Assembly (NCBI GenBank): GCA_973895155.1
Contig: OZ316892.1
Span: forward strand, 11,720,238 to 11,784,237
Source of the DNA: Marsupella aquatica
Lineage: Eukaryota > Plantae > Marchantiophyta
Reading direction: 5' to 3'
DNA: 64,000 bases
The notes beneath the pieces were generated by a model. It was not told the DNA's origin. It was given only the letters and a program-made list of their open reading frames with translations, and made no database searches. Positions within the stretch are counted from its first letter, which is position 1. Each line of letters starts with the position of its first letter. Of the stretch, positions 1 through 20,651 are shown one piece after another. A program made the translations under genes and the position numbers.

Positions 1-437
1 AGGTCTTCAAAAATCTCTTGAACCATTCTTGGGACATCCATCCCACCGTCCTCAGTGACTGCCTCTCCATCTCCATCTTGGTCATCCACGTTCTCATGTT
101 GGACCCCAGGACCATCCTCTGCACAGTCTATGTCCTGCTCTACGTAGTCTCTACGCCTAGCTGTATTAGAATCCACAAAGTCAGCTCTCCACTCTTCATC
201 AGAGGAGTCTTCTTCTGCTGGTACATTCCAAACCCTCCATCGAGGGTGCCTTTCATGCCGCAGCAGGTGAAGGTGCACAGTGTTCAAACTCAACGACTTG
301 AATCCTTGGCACTGTGTGCATGGGCATCTCATCCTCCTACTCCTACCTTGGGCGGCCCGGGCTTGTTCACGCATCCACAATTTAGAATCATGATGCCTAA
401 TCCTAAATGGGTTGTGAAGAGGCAACCTTGGAGCCAT
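1..437 (-). CDS. N-terminus of a CACTA/En-Spm (TnpD/Tnp2-type) transposase; runs off the left edge of the window
   Basis: Manual minus-strand translation from ATG at 437 stays open to base 1; it is absent from the ORF track because it has no stop. Translation: MAPRLPLHNPF...RMRCPCTQCQGFKSLSLNTVHLHLLRHERHPRWRVW, then an acidic tract, then MDVPRMVQEIFED. CPCxxC...VxxHL...W followed by an acidic linker matches the transposase-associated domain that begins plant CACTA transposases. The DDE core is outside the window. Confidence 0.72.
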   Translation of the reverse strand, partial: MAPRLPLHNPFRIRHHDSKLWMREQARAAQGRSRRMRCPCTQCQGFKSLSLNTVHLHLLRHERHPRWRVWNVPAEEDSSDEEWRADFVDSNTARRRDYVEQDIDCAEDGPGVQHENVDDQDGDGEAVTEDGGMDVPRMVQEIFED

Positions 438-763
438 CACTATACACACGCACTCAGCACCCTGTCATTTTATTATGCAAGTGAAAAATACACTTCCTGT
501 TAAGGATTTCACCCCCGACTGTACTTGCCAAAATACGTAACGTTCCAAAAAAACAAAAAAACAAAAAATATAGGTGCCTGAGTCATGTACCTATTCTCAA
601 GTGAATGAGACAAAATTCCTAAATGTTTGAGGGTGTCAACTCCTCCGCTGTCCTCACATGTACTGCCTCTGCACGTACATCCATGACCATATCAGAGTCC
701 AATCATGTATAGTCATAGACACAGGTGCCAGGTGCGAAACCGGTGTGAGATGTCCTCATCTTA

Positions 764-1297
764 CTACCACATCAAATACGGATACCAATCCTGTTGTCGA
801 TGCCACTCAGCCCTGAGGTACTCAGGCATGTACATTAAGTCATCAAGGTCTAAACCCTGCTCATGCCATGGTGGTCCTCGATCCGTGCCTACAAGCAGTG
901 GCAGTAGTGCCCTCCATGGTGCACATGTTGCTACCAAGTCCCTCCACTGGGTACTAATTAGTCTATATTTGCAGATATCTTGTGCGCCAGACACCACAAG
1001 AACCCTCGGCCAGACATGTGTAAGAACTATATCATTTGCCAAATCAGGCAACAAGGAACCACCTACAGCATCGTGCTTGTCTAACTCATCTGCTGAAAAG
1101 TAAATGTCCTCTTCCGACTGTGCATCCTCATTCACCACAGCATTCACAACACATCCAAGGTCTGCAGGCATTATCTCGGATGGAGCTACACTCTGTCTGG
1201 TTACCAATCCACACAAGTAAGCCCAAGCAGTAGCCATGCACGATGCAACCCGTAGGAGGACCCTACATAGGGCCTGACGGTCTGGAAGAGGCAGCAT
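764..1297 (-). CDS. Small F-box-like protein (transposon cargo)
   Basis: LLPDLANDIVLTHVWPRV...ICKYRLISTQWRDLV resembles the plant F-box consensus (LPxLPxDI...LxRV...RxVSxxWRxLV). First ATG at 1297 (ORF track starts at TTG 1333). No kelch or LRR substrate domain is visible. Confidence 0.55.
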   Translation of the reverse strand: MLPLPDRQALCRVLLRVASCMATAWAYLCGLVTRQSVAPSEIMPADLGCVVNAVVNEDAQSEEDIYFSADELDKHDAVGGSLLPDLANDIVLTHVWPRVLVVSGAQDICKYRLISTQWRDLVATCAPWRALLPLLVGTDRGPPWHEQGLDLDDLMYMPEYLRAEWHRQQDWYPYLMW

Positions 1298-1557
1298 ACC
1301 CACCAAAGTCTTCAGCCAAACAGAGCCCAGCAAGTAGATTCACAGTCACACCCCACGCAGCAGGAAACAACAATCACTTCAACTGCGACCAACCATGACA
1401 AGATGAGTTAGTTCAAGGATCACATTTATTACAAAATTGTGATTTATACAAAAATATGAGGGACTCCTACTCCTCACTCTCTCCCACCTTTGCTAAGCAT
1501 ACATCTCCGCTGAATCTTGGAGGGCCAGGCCTCAAAAATATCAAAGTCCCAAGCATT

Positions 1558-2322
1558 CTATCGCTTCCCTCTAGCTGCTGATTCCAGAAGCCAATCAGGG
1601 GAAAGCACCCAAAGATTGTTGTTCATGACAAAATCACGCACTATTGTCTTAAAGAATTTTCTGCATATTTTCATGTATGACAGACCTACAACATGAGTGG
1701 AGGTTTCTGTTAGACTCTCCTCCACTGTCCCACCTAGCTCAACAACTATAGACTTGTACAATCTGCACTTAGTCTCCCCAATTCCTTCTTCTGCAAATAC
1801 CACACTGAACCCCTTCATAATGGTATTTCTCTCCTTGCCATGCTCATTCAATATAGCATCTGCACGCATAGGATGGTGTCCTATGTTGACAATAGGTCCA
1901 TATTGGACAGAAGCAAAGTTGGGTTTCTCTGTCGCTGCTTCATAGGCTTCCTTTTCAGCCAAAGCCTCTGCAGTGGCCTCCTCACTCTCCCACAACTCAT
2001 ATTGCTCAATACTCTGTACACACCTATGTTTAACAGAATCGGTCAGCCAAGAGACTTCAACTACTTTTAGACCTTGGTTGGTAATGGCAGAATCAATGAA
2101 GGACCATGACCACTTGTTCATCACATCCAGCCATGTCCCCGCAACAACATGTGTAGTCTGTGGAGTGATGTCCTTGACTTCAGTCCCATGGAACTCTGAG
2201 AATCGTTTTTGTACGATTGGCCAACTCACTTGGGTGAACCCATAGTGGCCAGGAATCAAAATGGCTTTGATTCCAGCCAACAGAGGCGGGTGGTCAACCT
2301 TTGTATGTTTCCTAGAGGCCAT
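1558..2322 (-). CDS. Tandem BRCT-domain protein, PolX/Pol lambda-like BRCT (transposon cargo); stop at 1558-1560 probably premature
   Basis: Two BRCT signatures: TTHVV...KVVEVSWLTDSV...QYEL and IVVELGGTV...STHVV...VLSPDWLLES. Reading through the TAG gives NAWDFDIF, the expected BRCT C-terminal strand. ATG at 2322. Confidence 0.75.
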   Translation of the reverse strand: MASRKHTKVDHPPLLAGIKAILIPGHYGFTQVSWPIVQKRFSEFHGTEVKDITPQTTHVVAGTWLDVMNKWSWSFIDSAITNQGLKVVEVSWLTDSVKHRCVQSIEQYELWESEEATAEALAEKEAYEAATEKPNFASVQYGPIVNIGHHPMRADAILNEHGKERNTIMKGFSVVFAEEGIGETKCRLYKSIVVELGGTVEESLTETSTHVVGLSYMKICRKFFKTIVRDFVMNNNLWVLSPDWLLESAARGKR

Positions 2323-2920
2323 GTACACACGGGCCACCTAATCACTGCAGACCGGAAGATAATGCGTTCACCTGATAATCGGAGGGCCCTTAAAATGCTG
2401 CGTTTATAACTTGGTCCAGTCCAGTCGTCTGGTGAGTCTCTGCTCCGATTCCAAACGGGAGAAATATTGGGACAAACGTACTAGACACCTGCAAGCATGC
2501 ACCTCATAGTTTGAATATGTGCCTTCACAATATTGAAGGTGACAAGTGCAATTGTTTTGTGATGCCACATACAGATGTTGTAAATGGGCAGACATTCAAT
2601 GAGAATACAAAATGTTGGTACACTTTAAGGGAATTCTCGCAAATTAAATAGCCTTGTAACTTATATGCTCATAATGAGAAGTCCTGATTTAATTTAAGCA
2701 GTGTCATGTAAGTCGTGATCAAAATGATTGCAGAGTTAAAAAAGTTCCTAGAAGGCTTAAGGGGAGTTTTTGAAGGCATGTACCCAGGAACAAGTAATGA
2801 ACTTAGGGTACTTGTTGCCTAAGCATCCTCTCCTACAGAGGTCCTTCTTCTCAAAATTGGAATGTCTGCAATCTCCAAGGTATCCACATCAGGTGCACTA
2901 TGCATGTACATTATTCAGGT

Positions 2921-3601
2921 TCAAAGCCAAGAAATGTGATCTCTCATGGGAGTGTGCAAAGTAGGATCTATGGCATGGCGATGACAATAGAAGATCCATC
3001 GATCAACACCATGTGCAGAGTGATCATAGATGTGTCTGTCACAAGCATAGCCTTCTGCTTGACGCTCCTTCAAACAATGAAAGTGCCACATGGTGGGACA
3101 CCTAACACAGTGGACTATGTCCACCTAGAAATCTTCATCGTGCTGACCACATGCCTTGCACTTATGAAGTGGGCAAGCTGTGGCAAGATCGGGCAAACAT
3201 GAAAAACAAAAGAACCTCACACAATATCTGTCAGGGCATTTCCTAACAAGTGGTGGAGCATCAACAGAGCCCTCATAAGACCCCAACTTCCCACACTGTG
3301 CACACTTAGCCTGCTTCTCCAAACAATCAGTGCACATCCAGCCTCCCTGGTGTGCTGACGGGAGGCCCACCCCTGGACAGTTGTTTTCTACAGCAAGGTC
3401 AGACTCCGGGTTGAGGTGGAAATGCCTCATGCAAGGGCCCTCACATATGGCTAAGCCACCACCATCGTCACAAATGGCACAACAATGAGCTGCCTTCTGG
3501 AAAATCTGACTTGCGGAGAAGTTACTACCATCTGGCCCAACTACACCTGTGTTGCTCACCTCTGTCCCCCGCTTCTTGGCTCAGATTTTAGGGCATGCCA
3601 T
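2921..3601 (-). pseudogene. Stand-alone EDM2-type (NSD-like) tandem PHD finger cassette with two in-frame stops (transposon cargo)
   Basis: ORFs 3125..3559 and 2921..3124 are one frame split by TAG at 3125-3127. An upstream ATG at 3601 is split off by TGA at 3581-3583. Motif order CAICDDGG-L-CEGPCMRHFH...C..C..KQAKCAQCGKLGS...CPLHKC..C...HCVRCPTMWHFHCL...IFYCHRHAID..LHTPMRDHI follows the PHD region of plant EDM2. Confidence 0.78.
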
Positions 3602-4270
3602 GCCTACGCATGAGACAGATAGTACAATTTAGCAGAGTGCACAGACAATACAATTTAGTGCAGTGTACAAAAAGTACAGTGTAGCATATAGACTAGAGTG
3701 GCAATTGCTACTGCAATGAAATGTTCACACACATGTGCAGAGTAGACATACTTTTTGGTTTGTTGAGCCCACACTAAAAACTGATCCCCTCGTACAATAG
3801 CTCCACCTACACCTCAATTTTGTGGCTATGATTCACCAAAGGAGATCTGCAACAAGATTTAATGCATTTGAATCACATATAACAGTCGTGACATGTAAAA
3901 CAGGCATTTTTTGAACAGGATTGGTATCAAGCACTGTGATCAGGGTTGTAATTTATACATCCTAAATAGGCTATGATAGTGAATGAGACAAATAAGTTAG
4001 GCAGAAATCACTTTTTCTAGGTTATCACATGGCCCATTAATTCCAGTCTTTGAAAGGAGACTTTTAAGTGAGCTTGCTAGCCTCTTAAATTAGGATATTG
4101 TACTTAGTGCAGCCATAATAGGATAAGTTATGTACTGTTGACCCTAAACCCTGGACCCAAAATTGGTCATAATTCAAAATCTTAAGTAAATATCCTCTCT
4201 GTTCAAGTCAAAGTGTTAAGTTATAGGTCAATGGTCTCTGGTTTGTGCATGCGGGGTGACAAGTGGTCCT

Positions 4271-4720
4271 CTAGAGCGTGTGATCCAAACATGTGTAGAC
4301 ACCAAAGTGACCGGTGGTGGGGTCTGGGAGGGCAGGACAAGTGACATCGCCAGGCACACTGCAGGATGGCGAGTGGTTCCAGATGATACATTGTGCTCTG
4401 TGAAAAAACCGACATCCAAGAGAACGGTCATCCAACTCTAGGCCAGAAGCCCTACAGGCAGGACAGTCATATTGGCAACTGTGCACACACCCTTGGGCCC
4501 TAATTTGTGGCGGGTCATGTACTAGAGACAGAAATACCAAGGATGTTGGAAAGGGTGGAGAAGCAGGTACAGGCCGGCTGTAGTTGTTCCTGGCAACAAT
4601 TGGGTACTCAAAGTACCATGTAGACTGGGCTGGAAGGATCCCAAGTCTGACATACTCAAGGCGCAACATCTCTGCCTTGCGTGCAAGCCGCACATGTTCA
4701 GCGTTGCGGGTCCTCACCAT
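4271..4720 (-). CDS. Unknown Cys/His-rich protein (transposon cargo); TAG at 4271-4273 possibly premature
   Basis: 149-aa ATG ORF co-oriented with the other cargo ORFs. It contains CVHSCQYDCPAC and further Cys/His residues. Read-through adds RTTCHPACTNQRP. Confidence 0.4.
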   Translation of the reverse strand: MVRTRNAEHVRLARKAEMLRLEYVRLGILPAQSTWYFEYPIVARNNYSRPVPASPPFPTSLVFLSLVHDPPQIRAQGCVHSCQYDCPACRASGLELDDRSLGCRFFHRAQCIIWNHSPSCSVPGDVTCPALPDPTTGHFGVYTCLDHTL

Positions 4721-7700
4721 AAGTGTTGCTTTTGTGGAGATGTTGTGTGTTCACGTCCTCTGATAAGCACCTTCGATCAGCAAGGTGAGCAGGAGCTGTA
4801 CTTGCCTCACCAACAGCAACCAACCTTAAATTATCAGTTCCCACTCACTGTGTCATTCCATTGGTTCCAGCTCGGGGTCACAGTGTAAACATAGCATGAA
4901 ACACTCCTAATCAACTTGCTTACAAACTACAATATCCAGAAAGAGTGAAAGTCTCACCCTCTAGTGAGCAGCAGAGAGGTAGTTCAGTAGATGTGTTGAT
5001 GTGCAGTTAAACCTCCACTATTGCTTACTTCTGGTGTATGCTGCTCAGAAGAAGACATATTAGTAGCAGCAAATTGCAAATAATGGCCATAAGCAAACCG
5101 TGAGAGTTTGCAGAATGCTACGACAAATCCATCACAGCAGTGCTCCACAGGAATGAAACCAAGCAAAATTTGGTGACCTCGGCCAATGACAAGGCCAATG
5201 TAGTGAACAATCCTTGACCGATCAGGATATGGATTGGAATTACAATTAGTCAGCTCTTCTTCTTTGTTTTCTAACTCTGGGGGAAATGAGCATGACCAGG
5301 GAATTCTCTGAGAAATAGAAGTGCACAGGGAAAATGAAATTGGCTCATTCAGCTGCGCAAGACCGGCCATTGCAGCATACTTGGACAGTTGTTCCGCAAT
5401 ACATAAAATACCCTAACTTACATGCAATCGATACAATCTGCTTCTGTTGGCTGTCCTACAGCTCACGACAGTGCCGTTGGGATAGGGTAAGTGAATATTG
5501 CCATAGTTGAAGCACATTGAGCTTGCAGCAAGAAGTGAAGGAGCATGGCCAAAAGCAGAAAAGACAGACAGGTTTTACAAGAAGAAACTAACAACCGCCA
5601 ATCTGCTCAAATCCGCTGCATAGATCAAACCCTCCAAACTACACAGCCCTCCTTTGAAAACAATCCAATGTGCTTTGGCTGGTGGATGACAAGGACTGGG
5701 AGAAGAGGAAACGTCTACACAATCAATCCAAATGACGGGACACAGAGACCAGGCACAAAGAGGATTTGTGCTTAGACAAAAACCACAAATTGTAGCATGG
5801 GCGCCATAGCATTGGGCGGCAATGGGAAGAATTACATCAAATGAGTGGACAGAGAATGAACAGTCCGGTTATAGGCAAACAGCGACTGATGCCCTGATGC
5901 AATGAAACACGCATTGACATAGCGGAGGGACATAAAAACTACATAAGCCAACTTACTGACCTTTTAAGGCCCACAATTTCAAGGGGAGGGACAAAGACAG
6001 CAGTAACAGACGCAGAGACAAAGCTGTACTCTGTCAATTGAGTAGGCAAGTGGGTGGGTGAAGATCAACAACCAATGTAGCAGCGCAACCAGAGTAGCAA
6101 CAAAGAAGCAGGTTGCCCTCAGTCTCCTATTTTTCAAGCAGCTCATGCTCGCGGTCAATCTCCTATTCTGCAAGCAGCTCACGCTCGTCCCTCTTGTTCT
6201 GCAAGCAGGTCATTCTTGTCGGCGATGGTGCAAGCTGTCCTCCTAAACTCTGACACTCAAAATGAAAAGACCAAGCACCTCCAATCTGTTTGATCCCTTC
6301 CGCAAGTAGCCGAGCGGCAGACGATAATGTAGGGATCAAGAACCAAGTGCCAGGCGGACATTGCACAAAATGAGGACCGGGGGCAGAGACAAAATCTACC
6401 GAAATCTACCAAAATCTACTTCTTGGGGTCCAGCCCACGGATGGACATCATGCAAGGTGGTCAAAAATGGTAAGTGCAATTGTTGGAGAGCTGTACTCGC
6501 GATTACTAACGGTGCATCCACAAAACGCGTCATCAAGTTGTCAGTGCGGCCACAACAATTTTGACAGTCTCAGGATCACAGGTCCACAAACAAGTTGCAA
6601 ATGAAGACACACAACGTCCAGGAGGGAAAGTCCGCAACACTAACCCTTTGTAAAGCCCCCGAGCTTACCTTCTAGCTGCCGACGCAAAGAGAAAACCTAC
6701 TCGGACATTGAAGCAACCCTAAACTCAAAGTCTCACCTTAGCGCAACAACTCCTGGATTGGATTCAGCTAGCTCAGGCTGAATCCCACAAAAGGACAGAG
6801 GACAACATCGAAAAGCAATGTAGCCATGATGTCTTACCAGCAACGGGATCTTTAAACTTAAGGCGGTGCACTCGGCTTAAATGGCAGCAGGTAAAGGTAT
6901 TTTCTTCAACAACTATAGTGGTAATGTTACCCGTGCTTTTGTTCTCTGTCGTGGTGCTGCAGCAACTCCCTCCGTAGCCCAAGCCTAAGGTGCAAATCAC
7001 CAGCTCGCTGCTCTTGCTACTTGCTAGTGCCCTTCACTGAAACGCAAAACAACACAAAGACGTAAGATGACTGACTGGAAGACAATCCCGACAACCTCAT
7101 ATGACAGACTGCTTTTCTAGTGTGAAGAAATACATGATTACAAGCAACACCACGCCTCATCCAAGCAGGGATGTACATGAATACAACAACAAAAATTTGC
7201 ATACAACGATGGCCCGGTCACTTGAGGCTTTCGAGCCCTCACAATGTCAGATGGTACCAGGATCTACAAGGGATGCTAAATGGCTTCTCTCAAATCATGG
7301 AGTCTTGAATAACTCATATCCAGCGACAAACAAACTCAACAAATTCTGAATTCCTACCGAATCCAATCAAAATTGGCAATTTCAGCAGCTTCGACTGCCA
7401 AGACAAATCATAACGAATTTCATTGTGTTGGGGTTTTCCATAACTCTTCAGCCATAGGGAGAATGTGCTGAACCTAATGTACCATTCAATCAGGCAAGCT
7501 GTATGCTATGGAGGTATGACATTGCTCAAAATAGGATGGACCAGAGGAGATGTAGCTACTACGCAGCCAGCTGAGAACAGAGCGGAGCGAATCTACTTGA
7601 GCTCTGCTACTTGTTGTTTGGTTTTTGGGCATGAGTGTAAGGAGTGGGTGCGCAAGCCAGGGCCTATAGTAACCTTCAGCCTGTAGAGGCAATGAAAGTA

Positions 7701-7906
7701 TTCAACAGACAACCCAACAAAACAATGTGGAACTAAAGTTGCTGGAAAAGGGATGAAAGAAGCGCACTTTCAGCTGCATGGCCGGGACTAACCTTTGGCT
7801 GATGACATTGATAACCAATGGCAGCACTGTCAACTGCTTCCTCCTAACAAACAACCGGCTCCCAATTTTGCAACTGCTCTTTAAGCTCCACGACCTCCTT
7901 CACAAC

Positions 7907-8138
7907 TCCAATGTCCACCTTCCACAGCAGCAACGATTGCCTCCCTGCTCAGCCTCCTTTCAATGCCTCCGCAAGCTTTAAGGACCCACTGCAGTCCACC
8001 TTCCGCAGTGGTCGCCTTCCACAGCGCCTTCACAACTCCAATGTCCACCTTCCGCAGCAACAAACGATTGCCGCCCTGCTCACGCCTCCTTTGAATGCCT
8101 CCGCGACCTTAAGGACCCACTACAGTTAAACTTCCGCA
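7907..8138. repeat. ~120-bp tandem duplication (2 copies)
   Basis: ccttcacaactccaatgtccaccttcc...gattgcc...aatgcctccgc...taaggacccact occurs twice in tandem. Confidence 0.8.
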
Positions 8139-8957
8139 ACAATCACCTCACCTTACAATAGACCTTGGCACCGCAACACCTTCCCAGATCACAGCTCCTC
8201 CCCTCAGCTAAACCCTCAGCGCCTCAGTCCCCAGATCATAGCTCCTCCCGAACTGCAACTCACTGAAAACCTAAGCACTAAGGAGTGCCCTCGACATTGT
8301 TGCCGTTGCGCTGCACATTGCCCTGTCGCACGACCATTCTCCTGTTAGAATGGAATGACCTAAGCACTCAGGACTACCCTGGACATTGCCGTTGCGCTCC
8401 ACATTGCCTTGTTGCACATCGTTTCTTGGTAGAAATGGAGAAATCTAGACCTCCGACACAATCTACAAATCCTTTTGCAAGCAACTGGCCCTCTCCTCAA
8501 CAGCTCGCGATGGTAGCACAACCTTCTTGAAACAAATGGCAACACCAAGTCGCTCTGGGTGCAGCCACAACACATCGGCAGTGCGGGTCAGGAGAATTGT
8601 GCAACAATGAGAGGCCCTTCTCTCAAAAATCCCCGAAGAATGAAGCCCTCACAACTAGCTCCGATCGAAGGTTGCAGCAGCCACAACCTTCTTAGCCCTA
8701 CAGCCAAAACCTAAATCCAACGTAAAACCCCGAACCTTGGACCCCTCACGTTTTGCGTCCAATGACGATGGCCCAAACACTCCAAAGTCACTCCCAAAGA
8801 CCAGTTTAGTGCCTCTTTACTAGATTAGGGGACTTAAGTCATTAAGGGGAGCCACTCAACCTTACCGTTTGAGTGAGCCGTTGAGTGTCACCCAAAGTGA
8901 GACACCACTACATTGAAGTGTTACTGCATGGCCATCTTGGGTATTTCAGCAAATTTT

Positions 8958-9315
8958 TCTTGGCTTGGAAAAGTTCAATAAAGCCGGATGTTGGTGAAGT
9001 AGAGCCGACTGTGAATTGAAAATCATGCTAGCCCAAAAATCTTGGGTATGCGTGCACCCGGTTCTTGGCTTGGCAAACTTGAATAGAACGGGATGTTGGT
9101 GACCCCCACCCCCTTGAGACCTAACCGGCCCACCCTTGACATATAAACCCTACTAAACCCCCTTTAGTGGTGACCACCCACACCCTTCACATATAACCGG
9201 CCCACCCTTGAGACGTAAACCCCCCCTAAACCCACTATGGAGTATATGAGACATTAGGGCATTTAGACATGTAGTGAGTTTGTACGTGTTCAATATAGCG
9301 GACGTAAACCCCCCA
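8958..9315. repeat. Cluster of short direct repeats (putative transposon subterminal repeats)
   Basis: ttcttggcttgg...ggatgttggtga x2; tggtgacc...taaccggcccacccttga...taaaccc x2; gacgtaaacccccc x2. Confidence 0.7.
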
Positions 9316-9562
9316 TATGCCCATTATCAAATTGAGGCCCACAACTAAACCCTACAACACTCATGTGCGAGAGTGTTCACCCTTTCACAAAGTAGGGTAC
9401 GTGGAAACTTTTCATAGTCTTATCCTAAACCAAAAAGCACTCACAGTCTTTTGTAGTGTTCATGTGAACCGGTGCAATGGTTCCGAGTCATTTGAAGTTG
9501 TAAAAAAGGACTTAGTGGCCTTAGTCCTATAAGGTTTGGTCTAAATTGCCCCGGTTTTAACA

Positions 9563-11623
9563 ATCTTCCACCACGAAGCAGCCAATCACCTTCCCACCTT
9601 GCATGTAATATATACGCATAGTATTAAAGTTGGGTCACCTTCTTAGAACCATTTCGTCCACCCCTAGCTCCTGGTTCAACAGCCACAATGACCCCATCTT
9701 GGAATTCATGCCCCGCCAATGGAATGTCATAAGACCATCCATCCTGTCCGTGAGGAAAGAGTAAAACATAATGGAGTGGGGCATAGGACCTATGCCACTC
9801 GGAAATCCATTGTAGGCCACCATTCCTCTTCCTTAGGATTATATCCCTCCCACATGTTTCAATATCCTCATCTCCAACCATTATCACGCCAATTTCATCT
9901 GCCGTTGGTTTATTGTAGCGCCTGGGGTCTATATCCCGCTCCGCTACAATACGTAGCGATACGTCTGGCACCTCAGTGTCGTCAATACGGCTCCCTGCAT
10001 TTTTGAAGACCCTCACATACGGATTGTACATATGGAGCATCTCTTGCAAGGAAGCCAACACCGCATGATCCAATTGTGGCATCCTATTCATCCTGGAACC
10101 CAAGAAAAAACCATAAGACACAATATTGCAAAGATCATGTAACATCAAAGGAATATCAAATAAGTTGCACATGTTAATTACCTGTTCCCCAACTCATTCT
10201 CTATGTCATGAATATAGAGTTGAGCAAACTTTGGCCCTGCTCCATCAGGAGGCAAGAGGCTACCGGCACGATGATACAATGCTCCTTGGATACGAAAGGA
10301 GTATGGGCCACGATTGCCACCCCTTTCGTCAATTTTAACACCTAGGGAGGTAAATGCTAGGGCATTGTTGTAGCCTCGAATATTCTTTCGGAATGCTATT
10401 GCTGCGGCATTGGTACCAATCAGCAAGCCTCGAAGCGGCTCAGGGGGAGCACCAAGTGGGGGCAATCTCACTTTCCCGTCGGCGCAACACATGGTGAAGC
10501 ACGGGTTGCGTTGTGTTCCTGACTTGCACTCTTCCATCCAATGAAGCGCTTTACATTGTCGGCACTCGATGTTCATTTGCCCCAAAAGATGTTGACCCAT
10601 TGTAGGGTCCAAAGGTTGCCTTGCCTTTGGCAACCGTTGGATCTCTTCCAATCTTTGACGCTCCCGCAATACGTCATTTGGATTGAGTTGAGCTGGGGTA
10701 ATTGGTGCCAGGTTTGTGCCTCCCGTTTCCTCTTGGAGGTTATGGTCTATCTCGTCATCCTCATATTCATTTGGCAAATCCAAGGTGCCTTGAACAAATG
10801 TGTCAAATTGACCTCCTCCGTCATCCAGGATAGGATTTTCCCCCTCATGCAATGCACCATCAATGAGCCAATCTTCATCAAAGATGTTAGGGTCAGACCG
10901 TTCATTGTTTGGCATGGACTCACAGGGCAGGGAGACGGCCAAAGAGGCAACCCCATCTTGTAGAGCGCCATCAATGAGCCAATCCTCGTCAAAGACATGT
11001 AGATGTTCTGACACAGTGTTGGTTATGGGCTCACACGGTGGGGGAATGGCAAATTCCTCCGGATGTTGGTCAACCCTACATGCGTCCAAGGCACCATCAA
11101 TGAGCCAACCTTCATCGAACATGGGAGGGTCGGATGAACCATTCACAGGCGTCACTGCATGAGTGGAAACTACACTTGGGGTTCCCTCACGATTGTTATT
11201 GACAATGACGGATCTGGCCGATGCCTGTTGAGTAGCCCTTGCTTGACGGCGAAGCTCCCTTCCACTATTTGCGCGGCCAGATGCTATAGTTGGTCCTAAA
11301 ATGGCCCCCTCAAGGGAGGCCACCACTTTTGTTGGAATTCTCTGTGGTGCCCTTGCTTTGCGGTGCAATTGTCGGCCACTAACTCTAGGGGAAGGTGGCA
11401 CACTTGATTCTGGTATCAAAAGTGCCATACTTGGTGTAATGCTTGCCATTGTTATCGGAGATCCCACGCTTGGTGTGGAGGATGGTTGCGGCATCGTACA
11501 AACTTCAGCCCCCTCTTGCAGATGTCGCTCGGCATATCGTTGGCGACGCCTTGCATTTATGGCTGCCCTATTTTGGGCATGCCGTTCGCGATTAGCTTCC
11601 AATATTTTGCTTGGTGTTCTCAT
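9563..11623 (-). pseudogene. Helitron RepHel N-terminal region, two exons (intron 10093-10181), premature TAA at 9624-9626, truncated
   Basis: CRQCKALHW..E, CCADGKVRLP, FRKNIRGYNNALAFTSLG, FRIQGALYHRAGSLLP, PKFAQLYIHD, NPYVRVF, RRYNKPT, YAPLHYVLLFPHGQDGW and VTQL*YYAY...GGRL are all conserved Helitron motifs. A GT-AG intron joins the two ORFs in frame. Confidence 0.9.
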
Positions 11624-14214
11624 GGTCCAGAAACTCTCAAAACCCCTTCATCATCTGCATCCAACCCACACAACATATGAGAATTTTGGATGCACTTGCA
11701 TTGAAGCTCGACAAACCCCTAAGTAAATGCTATGTTGAACGCCGGTTGGGCCACACCTTTGCAAGAGACCCGAGACATGTGAGGAGATCCAATATCCGTC
11801 GATGATACTGCTTACCACAATCCCTCGTCTCACCCCCCCAACCTTGCTGGCGATCATCTTGCTTCCACGATGTCTCTTGCCCCTATGGTACCCCGGGTGG
11901 TACCCCCTGGTATTCATTACGCCAAAAGGTCACCCATCCCTGTGTCCGTCACCCATGGGACGTGGAAAATTCTCCATTCCATTGCATTTGTCCCCCCAAA
12001 CATATTCCATCCTTGTTTGAGGGTTGCCCATTGCCATTGCCGTCACTCATGGACCATCGCTCCCATCAGATCCCATCATCGTTCTCATCAGTTCCCACCA
12101 TTGCCAACAATATGCATCTCATTCCCTCAAAAACATTAGTCCCCTTAAATATACTTCTGGGGTCCTGCCACCCCCGGACCACATTTTGCGGTGAAATTTT
12201 GGCCCCCAATCCCCAAAAGTCTAGGCGCTGAGTTAATGGAATGCCAAGGCGAGCAAGCGTGGCAGGCAGGGTGACGGATTGGCTTGGCCGTGCGACAGAG
12301 TATGGGGTTGACATTGATCCAGGCATGGGCGAGGGCGTCATCATTCATTTGGCCGTGACATGGAATGGGCTCACCTTGGTTACCAAAGGGTCTAGGCGCG
12401 GGCGAGTGGCAACCATGCACTGGCCGTAGCCTGACCACTCATGTGTGGCAGGGGTGACATTGGGAGAGGCAGCCATGGCCGTAGAGTCCAGGCACAGGCA
12501 GGGGCAACCTCAGGAGAGTCAGCCAATGCAGGGTGCATGGCGAGGCACCAGCGCTCACCTCGGGGATGTTGGCGGAGGGATGGCCAGGGCTGAGGGTAGA
12601 GCAAGGGCAAGGAGAGCCGGTGAGCCAGCCCAAAGCGCGCATGGATTGGGGCTACAACCGTCTTAGCGCGAGCTCGCCTGGACCGAGGAGCATTGGAGGC
12701 ACGCCAACGATGGTGGCAGGGTGGTCCAGGCGCGGCCAGGCAGCCGTGAGCCAAGGGGAGGCAGAGAGCACGCCTGGACCAAGGGGCCGTGGCAAGGCAA
12801 GCGAGTGAGCATGAGGGCAAGCATGGCCGCGCCTGGACTGGTTCCAGGGCGTGGCAGCTGTGCCTGGGCAAGGGAGGGGGAGGTGCTAGTGAGCCAGGGG
12901 CATGGCAATGCATCCAAGGGAGGTGCTAGTGAGCCAGGGGCATGGCAATGCATCCAAGGGAGGTGCAGGGACAGGCTGTGCTCGCCATGACGCGACTGGA
13001 CTGGAGTGATGGAGGCAGCCTCAGTCGTGGCAGGGTGCGACCGAGGGGCCTCAACCGTGGGGGCCAGGGCACGCCTGGACTGACAAAGAAAGTTCCAAGG
13101 CAGGGTGCCGGTTCCAATGTAGCAAGGGCGAGGGGTGGCCGGGGCTTGGAGGGGCTGGCAGTGGCGGAGGGCGGGTTTAGGGAGCAAGAGGGGATGGCGA
13201 GGGGGCGAGCACAGTGGTGAGCGGGGCGCGGCGGGCCAACCCAGGCACGGGGTGTGCCAGGGTGAGAGCGAGGCTGCGCTCGAACAGGGAGGGAGGGCAT
13301 GAGGCGCGGCGGGCCAATCCAGAGTCGGGCCCTGAGGTTTCGTGCTGCACCCCAGGTTTCGTGTTGAGGAGGGAAGGCGCCAAGGAGGGGAAGAAAGTGG
13401 AGGGAGCGGGAAGCGAGGTGGCGAGGAGGGAGTGGGGAGTGGGGAGCGAGGAGGGAGCCGGCAGCCACTAGCGAGGTGGCGAGGAGGGAGCGAGAGGGGA
13501 TGGTCAATGGCAGGGGCCGAGGGGGGGCGCAAAGGGGAGGGCCGATGGTCCCTCCATGCGGGAGTACTCCATGGGCCGTGGAGGGGAGGAGGAGCGGAGG
13601 CGGGGAGGAGGGCCGTGGGAGGGAGGAGCGGAGCGCCATGGCGGGGAGGAGGGCCATGGCGGGGAGGGAGGAGGGCGAGCCAAAGAGGAGGGAGGAGGGT
13701 GTGCCATGGGGTGAGGGGTGTGCATGGGAGGGGAGTGCATCGATGGTAGGCCCTGACAACAGCCAATGGCAAGGGAGGGCAGCCCAAGCAGCGTCGCAGG
13801 CTAGCCACGGAGAGAGGCAGGAGGGACATGTGAGGCAGGCAGAACGGCAGGGTTACGCTGTCAGGATTTTTACTCCTTGCCTGGACTGGAGCGAGGGGAG
13901 AGTTGGGCGCTCAAGGGGGGTCAGGGGAAGCAAGGCAGGAGGGCAACCCAGGCAAGCGCAAGCCCTGCAGGGCAGGGCATACCAAGTCGTGGCACAGCCA
14001 GGCAGGTCGTTGCCAGAGGGAAAGCAAACTACGGTCGTGATACGACGACGGACAAACGTACCTCGTCTGGCGGCAAGACAGGGGACAAACAAACCTATCA
14101 ACGGCCCTTAAAAAATGTGAAATAATCCAACGGCCATGGATGACTCCCGCCCTCTGCTCATTTCGTAAACGAACGAAAGCCAAAAAAGGCGGCATCGGTT
14201 ATTATAGTGTTAGA
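9563..14214 (-). mobile_element. Helitron, 5' part only (truncated before the Rep and helicase core)
   Basis: The minus-strand 5' end reads A|TCTAACACTATAATAA, i.e. host A plus the TC start typical of Helitrons. An internal RepHel N-terminal ORF is present. No CTRR 3' end or hairpin was found in the window. Confidence 0.8.
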
Positions 14215-14413
14215 TCACTAGCTTGATTTCTACACTAGCCTATTATTTGTTCCATAAACATAGACAACCAGACCTAATTAATATATACGCTAACCCTTTT
14301 TTTATTTATTTTTTATTTTTATTTTAAAGGGAAATATGTTAAACGTCACAAAAAGGGAAGAGTTGGCCCCAATAGCTGGAAGAGCCGGCCCACAATAGTT
14401 GAACCTAATATTT

Positions 14414-14755
14414 TGTTAGGTATTGCTCTTAGTCTTGAGACTTATGAACTAATCACAATTAAGCTAACTCAAGTTAGGACTTAACTAATATTAACGGTAG
14501 TGCTGTTGTGAATGTTAGGGTTGATGTCAGCCCCTGATGAAACTTAGTCTCATTGTTATGGAGCTAGTTGAGAGATAGGGAGAGCTTGCGCTGTGAATGT
14601 TTGGTATGGCCGGTCGGTCTAGAGAACAGTAAAACTCTTGTGTGTTCCCGTGGACGTAACCTCATGTGGAGGTGAACCACGTATCTCTCTATGTCGACTC
14701 TTGTGCGTTAGATGGTTCATGGGCTTGCCGTTGCGATAGTCGTCTATGCTCAACA
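14414..14755 (+). mobile_element. Solo LTR (342 bp) of a copia family related to the neighbouring element
   Basis: TGTT...AACA ends; flanks TATTT/TATCT form a 5-bp TSD with one mismatch. Internal ttcccgtggacgta...gaggtgaaccacgta is the reverse complement of a motif in the 324-bp LTRs. Confidence 0.7.
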
Positions 14756-14928
14756 TATCTATCAGTCTCTACTCATTCAAGTGAACTACCTCAAAGTCAT
14801 ACCTCTCTAGGCACCTTTGAACAAAATCTTATAAAACACTGGTAGTGGTCAGTTGGCCTAGAACCGAGAGGTCCCGGGTTCAATCCCCCTCCACATGCAA
14901 GGGTTGTGTGTGAGGGTGAGGTGTAGTG

Positions 14929-15252
14929 TGTGGGAAGAAATCAGATCAGGAAATACACTCCAAACATACACGTGCTCAATAGTTACGTGGTTTGCCTCAA
15001 GGTTGGCTACGTCCACGGGAAGACCAAGCTTTATTAACGGTTATGTGTCTACTCAAGCATCACCATAGCTCCTATCTCTTCAAGCTCTCATCTCTTGCTG
15101 TATCATTGTGTTCTCTCTTGAGAACTCTCTTGTGTGTTCTCTCACCACATAGAAGTTGAAGAGATAAGGACCAATCTCTTCAACTAGGGTTTACTCTAAC
15201 CCCAGTTAATATACTAATCATAGTTCAACCCAAGACTGAGTTAACCTCTACA
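14929..15252 (-). repeat. 3' LTR of copia element
   Basis: Direct repeat of 20652-20975 with about 6 substitutions by eye. Polypurine tract TCAAGGGGGAGTT (minus strand) is adjacent at 15253-15265. Confidence 0.95.
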
Positions 15253-15446
15253 AACTCCCCCTTGACTCACGTCTTGGGAGGGTTCATAACATTGTCTTTT
15301 CCTTACAAGTTCCTCCGCGGGAAGATCAAGACAGTAGGGCCAAAAGACCCTCCCCCTAATGCAAGGGTTAACTAGAACTAAGCCGTAGCCGATAAGCCAT
15401 CGGATGGAGTACTCATATAGAGACATTTTCTTGGTTAACTCTATAT

Positions 15447-18400
15447 TTACAATATTTGTAAATAATTATAATGCCTTGAAAAACTATTGGAGTCTAACAT
15501 TTTGGTAAAAGCATCCGTTGGATTAAGCTTTCCATCAATCTTGACAAGCTCAAACTCATCATCCGATAATGCCTGTCGGATGAAATGATAGCGGACATCA
15601 ATGTGCTTTACCCTGCCATCCATCACTTGATTCTTGGCAGTGTAAATTGCACTTTGACTGTCACAATGAAGATAGACACAATCTTGTGATAAGCCCATCT
15701 CCGTGACAAGCTTTTTCAACCAAATGGTCTCTGATGCTACTTCTGCTGCCGCTACATACTCAACATCCATAGTAGACTTTGCAACACATTTTTTGGAGAG
15801 TAGACTTCCAACTAATGCATCCACCAGCAAGTGTAAATACATATCCAGTTGTCGATCTCCTCTTATCCAGATCACCTGCATAGTCTGCATCCACATAACC
15901 TTGAAGCACTTTCATATTGTTTGAACTTGTATCAAACAATAAACCCTTCTTAGTGGAACCTCTGATGTAGCACAAAATCCATTTCACTGCTTCCCAATGA
16001 ACTTTTCCTGGATTTGCCATGTATCTGCTTACCTTGCTAACGGCATAAGCTATGTCTGGTCGGGTGCATACCATGAGATACATTAAACTACCCACAACAC
16101 TTTCATAAGGAATGTTGGACATCAAACTTTTTTCTGTCGCATCCGATGGATAAAATGCTGCAGAAATATTGAAATGCCTTGCCAAAGGAACACTCACAGC
16201 CTTAGCATCTGCCATGTTGAATTTTGAGAGTACCTTCTCTGCATATCTTTTCTGCGTCAGCCAAAGTTTGGCTTTGTTAACATCCCTGACAATTTCCATG
16301 CCTAGGATCCTCTTGGTTGTGCCCAAATCCTTCATCTTAAACTCATAACTGAGTTGGGCCTTAAGCTTATCAACTTTGCCCCTATCCTGTGCTGCAATGA
16401 GCATGTCATCCACATAAAGTACAAGGATGACAAGCTTAAAACCTGTGTTGTTCACACGCCTGATGTAAACACATGGATCGTACACGCTTCGCACAAATCC
16501 AAGCGATTTCAAAAATTCATCAAAACGCTTGTTCCACTGCCTTGGGCTCTACTTTAATCCATACAAGGATTTTAGCAACCTGCATACCAAATTTTCCTTG
16601 CCTTTTTGCACAAAACTCTCTGGTTGCCTCATGTAAATCACCTCATCCAACGATCCATATAAGAATATCGTGACAACATCCATTTGATCTAAAACCAGAT
16701 CAAATAAAACTACAAGAGCACATAGCAAACGTATTATTGAATACTTTGCTACGGGTGAAAAAACCTCATTGTAGTCTATACCTTTCTGTTGAGTAAAACC
16801 CTTGGCTACCAATCGAGCCTTAAATATCTTCTCAGCATCCTCCGTGGGTCCATCTTTCTTCCTATACACCCACTTGCTGTCAATAGCCTGCTTATCACTA
16901 GGTAGACTTGTGAGTTTCCAAGTCTTGTTATCATGAAGTGATTTCATTTCCATGCGCATCGCCACCTGTCACTGTTGCTTCTCCGTAGAAGCTAGGACCT
17001 CTCGAAATGAGGATGGATCTCCATCTTCTGTCACCAATGCATCAATAGATTCTTCCTCCAAATCCACATGATCAAAAGGAAGCCAAGTTCCATACCTTTC
17101 CTGGGCTTGACGTTTACGAGTTCCTCTTCGCACTAAAGACTCTGGCTGATCTGATTGTAGTGTGCTTTGCCTTACAGTAGTGTCAACATATTCTTCATTT
17201 GATACATTCTCTCCTCTTAAATCCTCTAGAGGAGGAGATTGCACTTTGTTAGTAGTAGGGAATTGATCTATCTCCCTCTCCTTCAATGATTTGTCTTCAT
17301 TGAAGGATACATCCCGACTAACAAGTAACTTGCAATCAACTGGATCCCACAATCAATATCCTTTAACGTCACGTTGATAACCAAGAAAAATACATTTCTA
17401 GGCTCGAGGATCTAGCTTAGTCCTATTGTTGCTAGGAACATGTGCATATGCTTCACAACCAAAAACCCTAAGCTTTGAATAATCAGCAGGTCGATTGTGC
17501 CATAGCTCAAAGGGGGTTTTGTAAGTAATTGCCCGACTAGGAGAGAGATTTACTAGATAAGCAGCTATGTTGACAGCTTCTGCCCAAAAGATTTGTGGCA
17601 ATTTAGAGTGGCTCAACATGCTCCTTGCTCGCTCCAACAATGTGCGGTTGAGTCGCTCAGCAACACCATTTTGCTTAGGAGTGTACACAGTTGTGAGATG
17701 GTGAGTAATTCCCTTATTTGCATAATACGTGTTGAACTCGCCAGAGGTGTATTCACCACCATTATCTGATCGTAGATATCTCACATTCTTTGCAGTCTAT
17801 GTCTCAACTTGAGCTACCCATTGTTTGAAGATGGAAAGCACTTCAAACTTATGGACAATGAAATAAATCCAAACAAACCTTGAGTAATCATCGATAAATG
17901 ATACATAGTATTGTTTGCCTGAATGTGAGGAAACCGGAGCAGGACCCCACACATCGGAATGAATATACTCAAGTGCAACTTTAGAATGATGAATGGCAGT
18001 CAGAAATGGAGTTCTTATTTTCTTGCCGACAATGCAATGAGCACAAAAACTCAACTTGCATGCTTGCAATCCTGGTAGGAGATGTCGCTTGTGTAGGATT
18101 TCCAAACTTTTTTCACTCATGTGACCAAGCCGAGCATACCATAAATTGATTTTCTCCTCCTGAGATGTGACCAAATTGACTTCGGCAAGAGGTGTGGTGC
18201 CTTCCAAGACATAGATGTTTCTTTTCCTCTTGCCAATAAGAACTTCAGTTGATCCATGCGTGACTGTTAATACCCCATCAGTTGCACTCCATTGATAACC
18301 CTTCGCATCCAAGTAGCCAAGAGAAATCAAATTCTTACACATTTCTGGAATGTGTCTGACATTTGATAGAGTACAGTACTTGCCACCGGGTAGTTGAATC

Positions 18401-19482
18401 ATTACGGATCCAATCCCTAAAACTTTGCAAGAATGATTATTTCCCATCAAAACAGATCCGTTGATAGGAGTGTAGGATGAGAAAAGTTCACGCATATAGC
18501 ACATGTGATACGAGCAAGCGGAATCCAAGATCCATTGACAATCCTCAACTTGGGAAGTGGTACACAATGCAAATCCTTCACTATCCTCTTCTCGAACAAC
18601 CAGTTGGGCTGAAGAACCGACAATTTCCTTGAATGTGTCTTTGACGCGACAATCCTTCTTCATGTGGCCCACTTTGTCACACTTCCAACACTTTATTTCA
18701 CGAGTAGACTTGGATGGTGATTTGGATTGAGATCTAGATCTGGATCTAAACCTCCTCCTACCAAAAGATCGGTCGTGGAACCTTCCTCGCTCCATGGGAA
18801 GTGGGTTAAACCTTTTGTTTTCATGAGATGGCTCCCTTGATTTGCCTCTTTCTACCAACAGTGCTGTTGATGATGAGGTTGAGGTAGGATGAGCTGAAGA
18901 AACCAGCTTAGACTGCATGTCATCGGTCAACAGGGCACTCACCACATCATTGTAGGATATAGTTGTCTTATCACGGAATAGAAGAACTTGAGACAAAGAT
19001 TGGTACGAAGGTGGTAGTGAACTCAAGAGTTGTAAGGCTTTCTTTTCTTCGCTCAAATGCTCCCCCAAATTCTCTAGGTCAACCACAAGATCATTGAACT
19101 GATCGATATGATCTTGAATCTTGACTCCATCAGCCATTTTGAATTGCATGAGCTTCAGGCTTGCATACATTCGGTTTGACATCTCCTTCTTGTAGTACTT
19201 ATTGCGCAATGCTTGAAACAAGCCTGTCACCGTTTGTGTTGCTTTTTCCTCGAACTGCTTCTTCACATTGTTTTTCAGGTACATGCCAACAATACTTACC
19301 GCTTGATCTTGGAGATCATGCCAATCATCATCTTCCATCTCCTTGGGTTGAGATCTTAGTACCTTGCCTAGGCCCATCGCCCTAAGTGCATCCCTCACGT
19401 TACGTTCCCACATTGTATAGTCCATCCGACCATCAAAATTTTCCACCTCAAACCTTTGACCTTCAATCATAGTAGTCGCCAT
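15447..19482 (-). pseudogene. Copia gag-pol polyprotein with several nonsense mutations and a frameshift
   Basis: Gag with zinc knuckle CWKCDKVGHMKKDC; protease WILDSACSYHM; integrase HSDVWGP, LRSDNGGEY, NGVAERLNRTL; RT KARLVAKG, QMDV, LYVDDML; RNase H YVDADYAGD, CDSQSAI, KHIDVRYHF. Stops at ~17797, 17398, 17353, 16969 and 16549; frameshift near 15790. Confidence 0.95.
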
Positions 19483-20637
19483 CGCTGAAATGCCAAATGT
19501 AGTGTGGAGTCGTCTTCCGACAAGAATTAAACGTTGAATGCTCAGATGTGGGGTGTGAAAATAAGGCCAAAAATGAAAGTTGGTGAATTTTAAAACTGAT
19601 CACTCCTATGTGTAGCCCACAAGGTAACGCTCCAAATTTTGAAAACGGTTTGTCAAATGGACTCTCGAGTGCCGAGAATTTTTACTCCGACCGGAGGGGG
19701 TAAAAGATGAAATAATTACCCCTCGAGGGAATCTCTTATGCCAAAGATTCCACTAGTATACTTTTTCAGAATTGAACGCACCAATACTTGCCTAGCTTCC
19801 CCAAGTACGCCTCTCCAAAAGTTGAAGTTGATCCGATTTTATTTGCCGCTCGGAATCTTTGACCTTCGGTGAAAATTTAAGCCTCTGGAAAAGAATCTTT
19901 TTGGGAAATTCCGTCCGCCCTTGTACAGCCCCTGTGGGGGACTTCACAGGGGGCACTTCCCCCTGCCCGAGCCCTATCGAGCCCTAAAAGGCCTCCTCAA
20001 AGTTTTCGACCTCCTTGCGCATCCGCAGAAGTCGCAACTACTCGCGACAGAAAGTACCTCTCGGCGGATTCACTCAAATTCTCGTCTCAGCTTTTGACGA
20101 AATCCAATTCTGATTTCAGATTCAGAAACTAGACTTCGAGGGCATCAAGATTGATATAAAGAACTCGCAAAACGGTGGAGTAATGAGGGAGAAACAATTC
20201 GGTGAAAGTGATTGATATTAAGTTATCCGCCATAGCCAAAATTTCGAGCTCAAAAAACGAGAATTGAAATTAAGATTGTTTCTCAACCGTTTGACAAAAT
20301 TCAACGATGTTGATATCGAAACGTCTAGAAAGACAAGGCGCTCAAGCGTATCTCAATTTCAAGTCCTGATAGAACAATCAAAAAGACTGATCTGAGAAAT
20401 TGACCTTATCTCTTGCCAGATAACGTAAATTGAAAACTGTCACTTACAATTGTTTCCGTTTCTGACCTCAAGCCTTCATTGCTTCACTGAAATGAGCCCC
20501 TGGTTGTGTGCTCCACACTTGTGAGAAGATTGAGTTCGATCTTCTTTCAATAGCTCCGCTTCGAAGAGAAAATCATCCGTTGTTCGCTTTGCTTGAAGCA
20601 AGTTCTATGGAGTTCTTAATCGACTGAAAAAACCTGA

Positions 20638-20649: not shown

Positions 20650-20651
20650 AT

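Follow-up and report, generated by a model that had tools for sequence, protein, structure and literature searches.

A highly repeated CACTA-type element with four small conserved genes, candidate counter-silencing accessories, ahead of its likely transposase

The left end of the window, the 64,000-nucleotide stretch of Marsupella aquatica DNA analysed here, is best explained, with a probability that we put at about one half, as a mutated member of a CACTA-type transposon family that is highly repeated and has a cargo of four small conserved genes without introns, likely to be counter-silencing accessories. These cargo genes are located between the 5′ end of the element and its likely transposase. 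All five open reading frames of the array are on the minus strand: an orphan Cys/His ORF (4720-4271, 149 aa), an NSD/EDM2-type PHD ORF (3601-2921, 226 codons with stops at codons 7 and 159), a double BRCT ORF (2322-1474, 282 codons with a stop at codon 255), an F-box ORF (1297-764, 177 aa) and a CACTA transposase-associated ORF open for 145 aa to the window edge (437 to <1). Recomputed coordinates put the five at the starts, on the strand and in the order given in a preliminary description of this DNA. That description also had them closely packed; the co-orientation holds, but with gaps of 669, 595, 176 and 326 nt the packing is only moderate. It was right in calling the four cargo ORFs intronless, since 27 of 29 collected homolog proteins align to the window, each as a single unbroken tblastn piece (the exceptions are the repeat artefact P0021 and P0026, which is the C-terminal piece of a remote F-box homolog). 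Its domain names fared unevenly against profile models, with BRCT over the Pfam cut-off and Transpos_assoc, PHD and F-box below it in the window ORFs, and its extent of 1..4761 takes in the array and falls short of the element, which reaches 9557. AG acceptor-like sites, read by eye, precede several start codons, as would be the case if the genes had introns in their 5′ UTRs or used alternative terminal exons.

The element and its copies

The ORF at the left edge (1..437, minus strand) has a transposase-associated domain followed by an acidic linker and is likely the N-terminus of a CACTA transposase, as had been proposed, of the TnpD kind, with a catalytic core that would lie left of the window. 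The match to Pfam PF13963 (Transpos_assoc; E 2.7e-5, 24.7 bits) is under the cut-off of 27.7, and position and orientation are right, this domain standing at the start of CACTA ORF1 in the elements described in PMC8978399. Of ten listed sequencing runs four (X1, X2, X3 and X5) were compared, near-identical relatives of which one may be the source of the window DNA; among the others X6, X7 and X8 have small shares (0.11, 0.10 and 0.05), X6 and X8 being from further organisms. An X1 contig spans 1-715 with 2 differences from the window, and an X5 contig extends 611 nt past the left edge.

At the other end, 17 X2 contigs among the matches listed depart from the window behind 9557, and the first 9 letters of their consensus beyond it read CACTAGTAG on the minus strand, its start the same as that of a published CACTA TIR (PMC8978399). 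The flanks beyond this terminus are diverse between the contigs (overall agreement 0.59). Among the matches listed the terminus occurs in this one run, 4.8 kb from the array and across a lower-copy segment, and the window copy itself, which adjoins a truncated Helitron-like ORF, is without the outermost ~9 bases of the CACTA end. Ownership of the cargo by that neighbouring Helitron was rejected because the CACTA terminus intervenes and the depths differ. A CACTAC at 9458 was dropped as the terminus, the contigs putting the end at 9557.

Inward of the end, the subterminal region (8901..9557, minus strand) has a few short direct repeats at 8934-9327 and one inverted pair with no dense motif array, and X1 depth climbs again in the bin containing the 9557 end. 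Next come a variable segment of lower copy number, in which short stretches are duplicated in tandem (6401..8900, edges approximate, minus strand; X1 bin depth 257-536) and a 5′ internal region common to the abundant family (4721..6400, right edge approximate, minus strand), X1 bin depth being 1166-1656 up to 6461 and then 536 and 257. Joints in other copies skip 5814-7079, 5914-7112 and 8328-8676. No domain match came from a six-frame Pfam scan of 4721..6400 and no Pfam match from the variable segment. A fifth cargo gene in 4760-9557 (an ORF at 4984-5412, or a stretch of ankyrin-like look at 7850-8700) was discarded as a candidate, neither place having Pfam support.

Contigs from all four runs cover the array. 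In X1 those of 1-715, 1038-1447 and 1719-2139 have depths of 1817, 1772 and 1768 vs 15.6 for a flank at 14186-14578, so that the array is ~115-fold deeper, a rough ratio and not a copy number. Array and spacers have thus been amplified together in a dispersed multi-copy family, whose sister copies show a CACTA terminus and hardly differ from each other (0-4 differences in stretches of 410-715 nt). No contig bridges two array ORFs among the matches listed (the best 32 of 20,693 pieces); the grounds for conserved gene order, which is seen among near-identical copies only, are that depth is equal, that contigs cover the spacers and that a single joint links 3803 to 4578.

The verdict of decay in the preliminary description fits the window copy, with its three stops, and not the family, nearly all sister copies being free of two of them. 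At the BRCT stop (1558-1560) the sense allele at 1560 has ~100% of the depth, and PHD codon 159 is sense in 97-100%, in each case in all four runs; PHD codon 7 is absent from the allele rows listed (the best 40 of 1201). X2 and X5 contigs have a 43-nt deletion (1089-1131) that removes the N-terminal third of the F-box ORF; the F-box itself is kept, in a frame of 115 aa that begins with Met. Of 15 transitions with T or A in the window and C or G in the sisters, 11 are in CHG context vs a background of 18% (p 5e-6), both private stops (PHD codon 159 and BRCT codon 255) among them, and the element is therefore a target of CHG methylation. CpG observed/expected is 0.24-0.42 for the cargo and 0.37 for the transposase vs 0.78 and 0.85 for the window's host exons, a depletion that suggests long residence of the cargo in methylated DNA.

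Four cargo families and their constraint

The PHD ORF (2921..3601) is, by its profile matches, a stand-alone triple PHD cassette of NSD/EDM2 type. Three NSD-type PHD Pfam models match in order, at E 1.6e-5 to 5e-3 and each below cut-off; its homolog P0004 is over the PHD-1st_NSD cut-off, and in the PDB the profile matches NSD2 (E 3.8e-9) and also NSD3. Relative to NSD2 the second finger is shortened, with a Cys in place of a His. The earlier term 'EDM2-type' is borne out as to NSD/EDM2 PHD type; the choice of EDM2 over NSD is one of motif likeness and not of a computed match. Four homologs (81, 74, 53 and 40% identity) have the same terminal motif, and they and the window ORF (217-245 aa) stop a short way past the third finger, without the C-terminal methyltransferase-like (ELP) domain. 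A PHD-only gene with the same end motif across 40% identity is not a random fragment. Invariant cysteines number 20 of 23, and retention of Cys, His and Trp (35/43 at 53% identity, 32/42 at 40%) is higher than in any of 400 neutral simulations (which reach 0.70 and 0.60).

The BRCT ORF (1474..2322) matches Pfam BRCT twice (E 1.2e-13, over cut-off) with a linker of ~53 residues. The homologs P0001 and P0006 are 60% identical and have open frames; 135 of 200 domain positions are identical vs 20 of 52 in the linker (p 1.4e-4). PDB matches of the profile to DNA ligase IV (E 0.005), BRCA1 and TdT are weak, and the predicted structure, which would have to show the packed fold and phosphate pocket of phosphopeptide-binding BRCA1/MDC1-type pairs, is poor (pLDDT 33). 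An origin of the BRCT domains from a polymerase lambda-like Pol X protein is a lead, its sole support being the TdT match at E 0.06.

The F-box ORF (764..1297) has a variable N-terminus, an acidic patch, an F-box at residues 81-128 and a conserved 40-residue tail, with no kelch, LRR or WD40 part and no known substrate domain. Its own Pfam F-box match is at E 0.1 (0.048 for the C-terminal 98 aa), and to judge from its relatives the F-box identity holds at family level. Twelve clusters of homologs (100-190 aa) are 34-55% identical in the matched stretch; eight are at E<=0.1 and one, P0012, is over both Pfam F-box cut-offs. In all twelve, 19-32 of 47-48 core residues are identical, as are 22-29 of 42 in the tail of the seven closest; the N-terminus is poorly conserved. 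The ten best named Atlas matches are all in the F-box clan. The search, run without a length limit, gave only short relatives and one repeat artefact (P0021, rejected as a homolog), several of the relatives deriving from metagenome assemblies, including JGI contigs; the contig of P0014 is 5.5 kb long, and P0025 and P0027 lie on 3.6 kb. The conserved tail is a candidate substrate-binding part.

The orphan ORF (4271..4720) is conserved in its N-terminal half and has a cluster of Cys and His for which zinc binding is possible. Two homologs are 54% and 53% identical over 97%, with Cys, His and Trp retention not significantly above that of other residues (p 0.11 and 0.19). There is no credible Pfam match and no Atlas match; the predicted structure is poor (pLDDT 44) and the fold search gave no fold match (best Z 4.0).

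Each cargo ORF has open-frame, same-sized, stand-alone homologs at 30-81% identity, the open frames being partly ascertained, since the word searches used for PHD, BRCT and the orphan admitted near-full-length proteins only. Of 27 homolog entries looked up none has a functional name, three being called 'hypothetical protein'. The homolog comparisons show three of the four ORFs (PHD, BRCT and F-box) to be under what reads as domain-focused constraint, unlike random Pack-CACTA fragments; the orphan shows no significant ligand constraint. Conservative substitutions were not enriched over neutral simulation in any cargo ORF, and fold searches of predicted structures gave nothing at E<=0.001, the best Z being 4.0. 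No diverged homolog was placed in a transposon by metagenome context scans with PHD and BRCT alignments, or by context scans of prokaryote genomes and viral contigs, which are insensitive. A phage-like contig, L001, was rejected as an 11-residue chance match without a DNA or homolog match.

What the cargo may do

The cargo genes are probably maintained by selection on the element; that counter-silencing is their main job has somewhat less than even odds. The most likely step is that the PHD cassette would bind H3 tails in heterochromatin as the fingers of host EDM2/NSD do and, being without an effector domain, may be a decoy or adaptor enabling transcription of the element through H3K9me2/CHG chromatin; EDM2 is a binder of H3K9me2 that favours transcripts of full length and has effects on more than 2,000 TEs (PMC7529245). 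Next in order, the F-box protein may dock on SKP1, its tail delivering to SCF a factor of the host's silencing or defence, or alternatively might titrate SCF. The BRCT pair, third in order, could recruit end-joining factors, or hold them, where the element excises and integrates. Least likely of the four, the orphan would be a zinc-dependent specificity factor in the role of flowering-plant TnpA or VANC.

Pack-type hitchhiking is a rather doubtful alternative, and the best of the others: small genes of lineage-specific host families would have been captured and spread by a recent burst, their constraint dating from earlier life as host genes and the benefit to the element being none, or camouflage only. 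The constraint could indeed predate capture, should the diverged homologs prove to be genes of the host, and sister copies are so nearly identical that selection is not required to explain their open frames. CACTA elements are known to pick up pieces of genes on the upstream side of the transposase-associated domain (PMC8978399, PMC6379663); in the F-box family at least 12 clusters are under 50% identity, and the 5′ region has the patchiness of Pack elements. Against this, all four cargo ORFs are whole, intronless and co-oriented with homologs that share their ends, the homolog entries lack functional names, the PHD-only gene keeps its end motif across 40% identity, and the CpG depletion of the cargo is like that of the transposase and unlike that of host exons.

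Selected accessories could instead serve transposition itself, an unlikely reading in which both would be partners of the transpososome, the PHD cassette guiding integration according to chromatin state and the BRCT pair dealing with the repair of breaks. Captured readers (an MBD in Copia, chromodomains, PHD fingers) have been proposed to direct integration (PMC6673714), and the nearest solved BRCT relatives, all weak matches, are DNA ligase IV, BRCA1 and TdT. Here the readers are separate proteins and not transposase fusions as in known cases, an F-box suits degradation of host proteins better than targeting, and the weak PDB matches give the BRCT domains no subtype. Very improbable is a ready-made block from a virus or other mobile element that the CACTA element later acquired: large DNA viruses typically have small genes, densely set, co-oriented and free of introns, with F-box and BRCT domains among them, the array has that architecture, one IMG/VR stretch encodes a relative of the F-box homolog P0014 (no locus returned) and several F-box homologs come from metagenome assemblies, but the other four viral scans with cargo queries gave no relative (weak negatives, since the scans are insensitive) and the PHD type belongs to eukaryotic chromatin machinery.

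Of the selected toolkit first proposed, the multi-copy CACTA element and the old, constrained stand-alone families stand, with gene order seen among near-identical copies. None of the three observations that would have told against it (a 437 ORF that is no transposase, a single-copy array without element termini, cargo evolving neutrally across copies) turned up. A tentative extension of the counter-silencing reading is a CACTA lineage of non-flowering plants with a virus-like four-gene counter-host toolkit, jointly an H3K9me reader or decoy, an SCF adaptor, an end-joining adaptor and a novel zinc protein, whose order is kept across deeply diverged families. If true, the toolkit would stand in for TnpA/VANC, an independent anti-silencing system from the host's EDM2-type anti-silencing reader. 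Few plant systems are known in which a transposon has proteins dedicated to anti-silencing; the examples, VANC and TnpA, have been reported from flowering plants alone, as PMC13547354 and bioRxiv 10.64898/2026.08.24.746577 state for TnpA-like proteins. The present CACTA family, amplified recently and with accessory genes that can be studied one by one, offers four testable candidates in other land plants that bear on transposon escape from H3K9me2/CHG silencing and on the handling of break repair, and it defines four unannotated protein families, one without a known fold; should the genes be hitchhikers, it would show strikingly how a CACTA element can multiply entire genes.

Relation to known systems

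No CACTA element with such a four-gene cargo was found in the literature searched, and 'new system', as the preliminary description had it, overstates the case because other transposons are already known to carry accessory genes related to chromatin. Like plant En/Spm (CACTA) elements such as Jozin of Chenopodium, the family has a CACTAGTAG terminus, present in sister copies, and a likely transposase-associated domain opening ORF1, with additions 5′ of that domain (PMC8978399). Known additions are either short fragments, such as 80 bp of AP2 or parts of neprosin, or domains of ORF2 (Peptidase_C48, Transposase_24) (PMC8978399), whereas here four whole ORFs are added, and ORF2/TnpA would be off the window. 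Pack-CACTA elements likewise have CACTA ends around host-derived coding sequence, commonly with one end lost, but are non-autonomous and carry fragments, in contrast to a likely transposase start open for 145 codons and whole ORFs without a named donor (PMC6379663, PMC13317346).

VANDAL elements with VANC, repurposed from the host chromatin regulator MAIN, are also plant DNA transposons with a dedicated accessory gene (PMC13547354, PMC10398659). They are Mutator-like, eudicot-specific and of demonstrated activity (PMC13547354), unlike the present element, known from sequence alone, whose domain and terminus are CACTA-type and in which no ORF or frame has a VANC/plant-mobile-domain or MuDR Pfam match. 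TET-encoding EnSpm/Plavaka and SET-encoding HarbingerS/MuDR elements are DNA transposons with separate chromatin-related genes, but these are enzymes, in fungi and oomycetes, and the main text on them names no PHD, BRCT or F-box (PMC12730594); here the modules are for non-catalytic interaction, in a plant. CopiaMBD elements, too, co-opt a host epigenome reader, though as retrotransposons with one domain, fused to the pol frame (PMC6673714). The cassette shares the triple-PHD type of host EDM2/NSD (PMC7529245, PMC3632883, PMC3776765) and differs from both in being a 226-aa protein without a methyltransferase-like or SET domain.

Structure of the array and its copies

Five minus-strand ORFs, as the preliminary description had it, are confirmed in the window sequence at their proposed starts: the orphan Cys/His ORF at 4720, the PHD ORF at 3601, the BRCT ORF at 2322, the F-box ORF at 1297 and the likely CACTA transposase N-terminus at 437, with gaps of 669, 595, 176 and 326 nt between them. 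Pfam finds two BRCT domains (E 1.2e-13), a series of three PHD fingers of NSD type in the expected order, and a weak F-box. In the 437 ORF it finds a transposase-associated domain (E 2.7e-5, under the cut-off), and the Pfam scan of the Cys/His ORF gave no match. Cargo homologs that align do so as a single unbroken piece on the window. By eye, AG acceptor-like sites lie from a few to 25 nt 5′ of several starts (4720, 3601, 2322 and 437), a hint of 5′ UTR introns or of one common leader that splicing joins to different ORFs.

Ten public runs from six studies are listed, none recorded as RNA, and eight hold part of 1-9600. Contigs were compared over 1-14900 for four (X1, X2, X3 and X5; organisms A, B and C, three studies), one of them possibly the window's own source. 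Depth is high over 1-4970 in all four, and the window array belongs to a family with many copies. X1 contigs with 0-4 differences from the window have depths of 1817 (1-715), 1772 (1038-1447) and 1768 (1719-2139), and a perfectly matching flank contig (14186-14578) has 15.6; as contig depth is not copy number, the ~115-fold excess gives an order of magnitude only. None of the 32 pieces listed out of 20,693 reaches from one ORF into the next; that the ORFs are linked in other copies is supported by equal depth, by contigs across ORF-spacer borders and by a joint from 3803 to 4578.

That the copy is decayed, also proposed earlier, holds for the window copy, where stops interrupt the PHD ORF at codons 7 and 159 and the BRCT ORF at codon 255, but not for its sisters: the BRCT stop position is sense in ~100% and PHD codon 159 in 97-100% of depth in all four runs. 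PHD codon 7 lies outside the 40 window-versus-contig differences listed of 1201. Of the 15 listed differences in 1-9557 at which the others have C or G against T or A in the window, 11 have CHG context (18% in the background, p 5e-6), the BRCT stop and PHD codon 159 among them. Deamination of methylated C thus degraded the window copy, and the frames were kept in the family. The cargo ORFs have CpG observed/expected ratios of 0.24-0.42 and the transposase start has 0.37, against 0.78-0.85 in two host coding regions; the depletion points to long residence of the cargo in methylated DNA.

The element end and its surroundings

At least 17 X2 contigs (among 24 listed of 1857 loose ends) exit the window behind 9557. 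Their minus-strand consensus has CACTAGTAG as its first nine letters and then diverges (agreement 0.59), the pattern that a single terminus inserted at many sites would give. According to passages of PMC8978399, a published CACTA TIR has the same start, and the transposase-associated domain comes first in CACTA ORF1. The window copy is without the terminal bases CACTAGTAG and adjoins a cut Helitron-like frame (9558-11647, minus strand; one frameshift, one stop) that breaks off exactly at the CACTA end and is multi-copy by depth. From its motifs we take this frame to be the N-terminal part of a RepHel protein; the Pfam scan gave no match to it. Depth is high to ~6400, lower in 6400-8900 and up again at the end; most copies of the family therefore probably have this terminus, whereas the central part of the 5′ arm differs among them. 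The catalytic core, the opposite terminus and the TSD would fall outside the window. Within the 5′ arm, 7850-8700 (minus strand) resembles degraded coding sequence, contains a tandem duplication of 131 nt and has no match in the Pfam scan; it is presumably ankyrin-like, and possibly a fifth cargo.

A short, extremely abundant repeat occupies ~14414-14755, with 149, 213 and 88 contigs ending at 14755 in three runs, and an X2 contig joining 9529 to 14414 shows that a further copy of the element also has it close to its CACTA terminus. At ~14926-20959 is a Ty1/copia element with 98% identical LTRs, gag-pol Pfam matches, interrupted frames and an apparent 5-bp TSD, and at 22296-24398 inverted repeats of 60 nt (72%) flank 2 kb of AT-rich DNA, possibly an old TIR element. 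Host genes within 25044-60000 include Es2, ARPC3 and one with a Pkinase domain (Pfam), which we take to be a Wee1-like kinase; judging from motifs, a kinesin-12 and a polyadenylation factor like FY/WDR33 are presumably there as well. Gene density and protein likeness suggest that the host is a non-seed land plant with a gene-dense genome.

Constraint and possible roles of the cargo

Judged by sequence comparison, each cargo gene belongs to an old family. BRCT homologs form one cluster (two members, 294 aa, 60% identity); four PHD homologs (217-245 aa; 81, 74, 53 and 40% identity) all have the same end motif; two orphan homologs are 54% and 53% identical over 97%; and for the F-box ORF 1.84 billion representatives yielded 13 matches, of which one is an artefact and 12 are short relatives (100-190 aa). 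The word searches behind the BRCT, PHD and orphan homologs take in near-full-length proteins only. A functional name is carried by none of the 27 entries examined in homolog clusters (6 plus 21, the latter covering 10 of the 13 F-box matches). Scans of metagenomes, viral contigs and prokaryote genomes located none of the diverged homologs in genomic context.

In the PHD family 20 of 23 cysteines are invariant, and retention of C, H and W (35/43 at 53% identity, 32/42 at 40%) is above all 400 neutral simulations. The BRCT domains keep 135/200 residues versus 20/52 in the linker (p 1.4e-4), and the F-box family conserves the F-box and tail with a drifting N-terminus. Other observations count against constraint. 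The orphan keeps C, H and W no better than could arise by chance (p 0.11, 0.19), and no cargo ORF is enriched in conservative substitutions. X2 and X5 contigs have a 43-nt deletion (1089-1131) within the F-box ORF that shortens it to a Met-started frame of 115 aa with F-box and tail, matching the many short F-box homologs. Loose ends of X1 contigs at 1706 and 1907 resemble, by eye, diverged BRCT variants, one like the stored homolog P0001, which suggests further subfamilies in the same organism.

The PHD cassette matches NSD2 (E 3.8e-9) and is of NSD/EDM2 type without an effector domain; the likeness of EDM2 to NSD1 is noted in part of PMC3776765. Host EDM2, going by portions of PMC7529245 and PMC3632883, binds H3K9me2, helps transcription run to full length across heterochromatin and affects >2,000 TEs. 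A bare PHD cassette could act as decoy or adaptor, and the short F-box protein with its conserved tail might recruit a host protein to SCF, or else titrate the complex. To selected accessories of this counter-silencing type we give a probability of about one half. Host genes that simply hitchhiked in the element are a rather unlikely source for the array, and a viral gene block is a very improbable one. The BRCT pair, with weak matches to LigIV, BRCA1 and TdT and a poor predicted structure, may engage end-joining factors; that the set serves targeting and repair instead we consider improbable. Searches with the orphan gave no fold assignment.

Relation to known elements

The array is real, and its family shows a CACTA-type terminus and dispersed multiple copies, with a below-cut-off transposase-associated domain in the place and orientation usual for CACTA elements. 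No earlier description of a CACTA/EnSpm element with BRCT and PHD cargo was found among the papers listed from a mostly non-subscription literature. The main texts of PMC12730594, PMC13547354 and bioRxiv 10.64898/2026.08.24.746577 mention neither PHD nor BRCT nor F-box, and the part of PMC11982613 consulted has nothing bearing on the element; other accessory domains are mentioned in sections of a survey of 962 Spm proteins (bioRxiv 10.64898/2026.08.24.746577). In the sections seen of that survey and of PMC13547354, reports of TnpA-like proteins are limited to flowering plants, so that elements of other plants could well use some other set of accessories. VANDAL elements with VANC likewise have a separate chromatin-related gene, and TET-EnSpm such genes, but the window element is a member of neither, and from Pack-CACTA it appears to differ in its whole, constrained ORFs and its likely transposase start.
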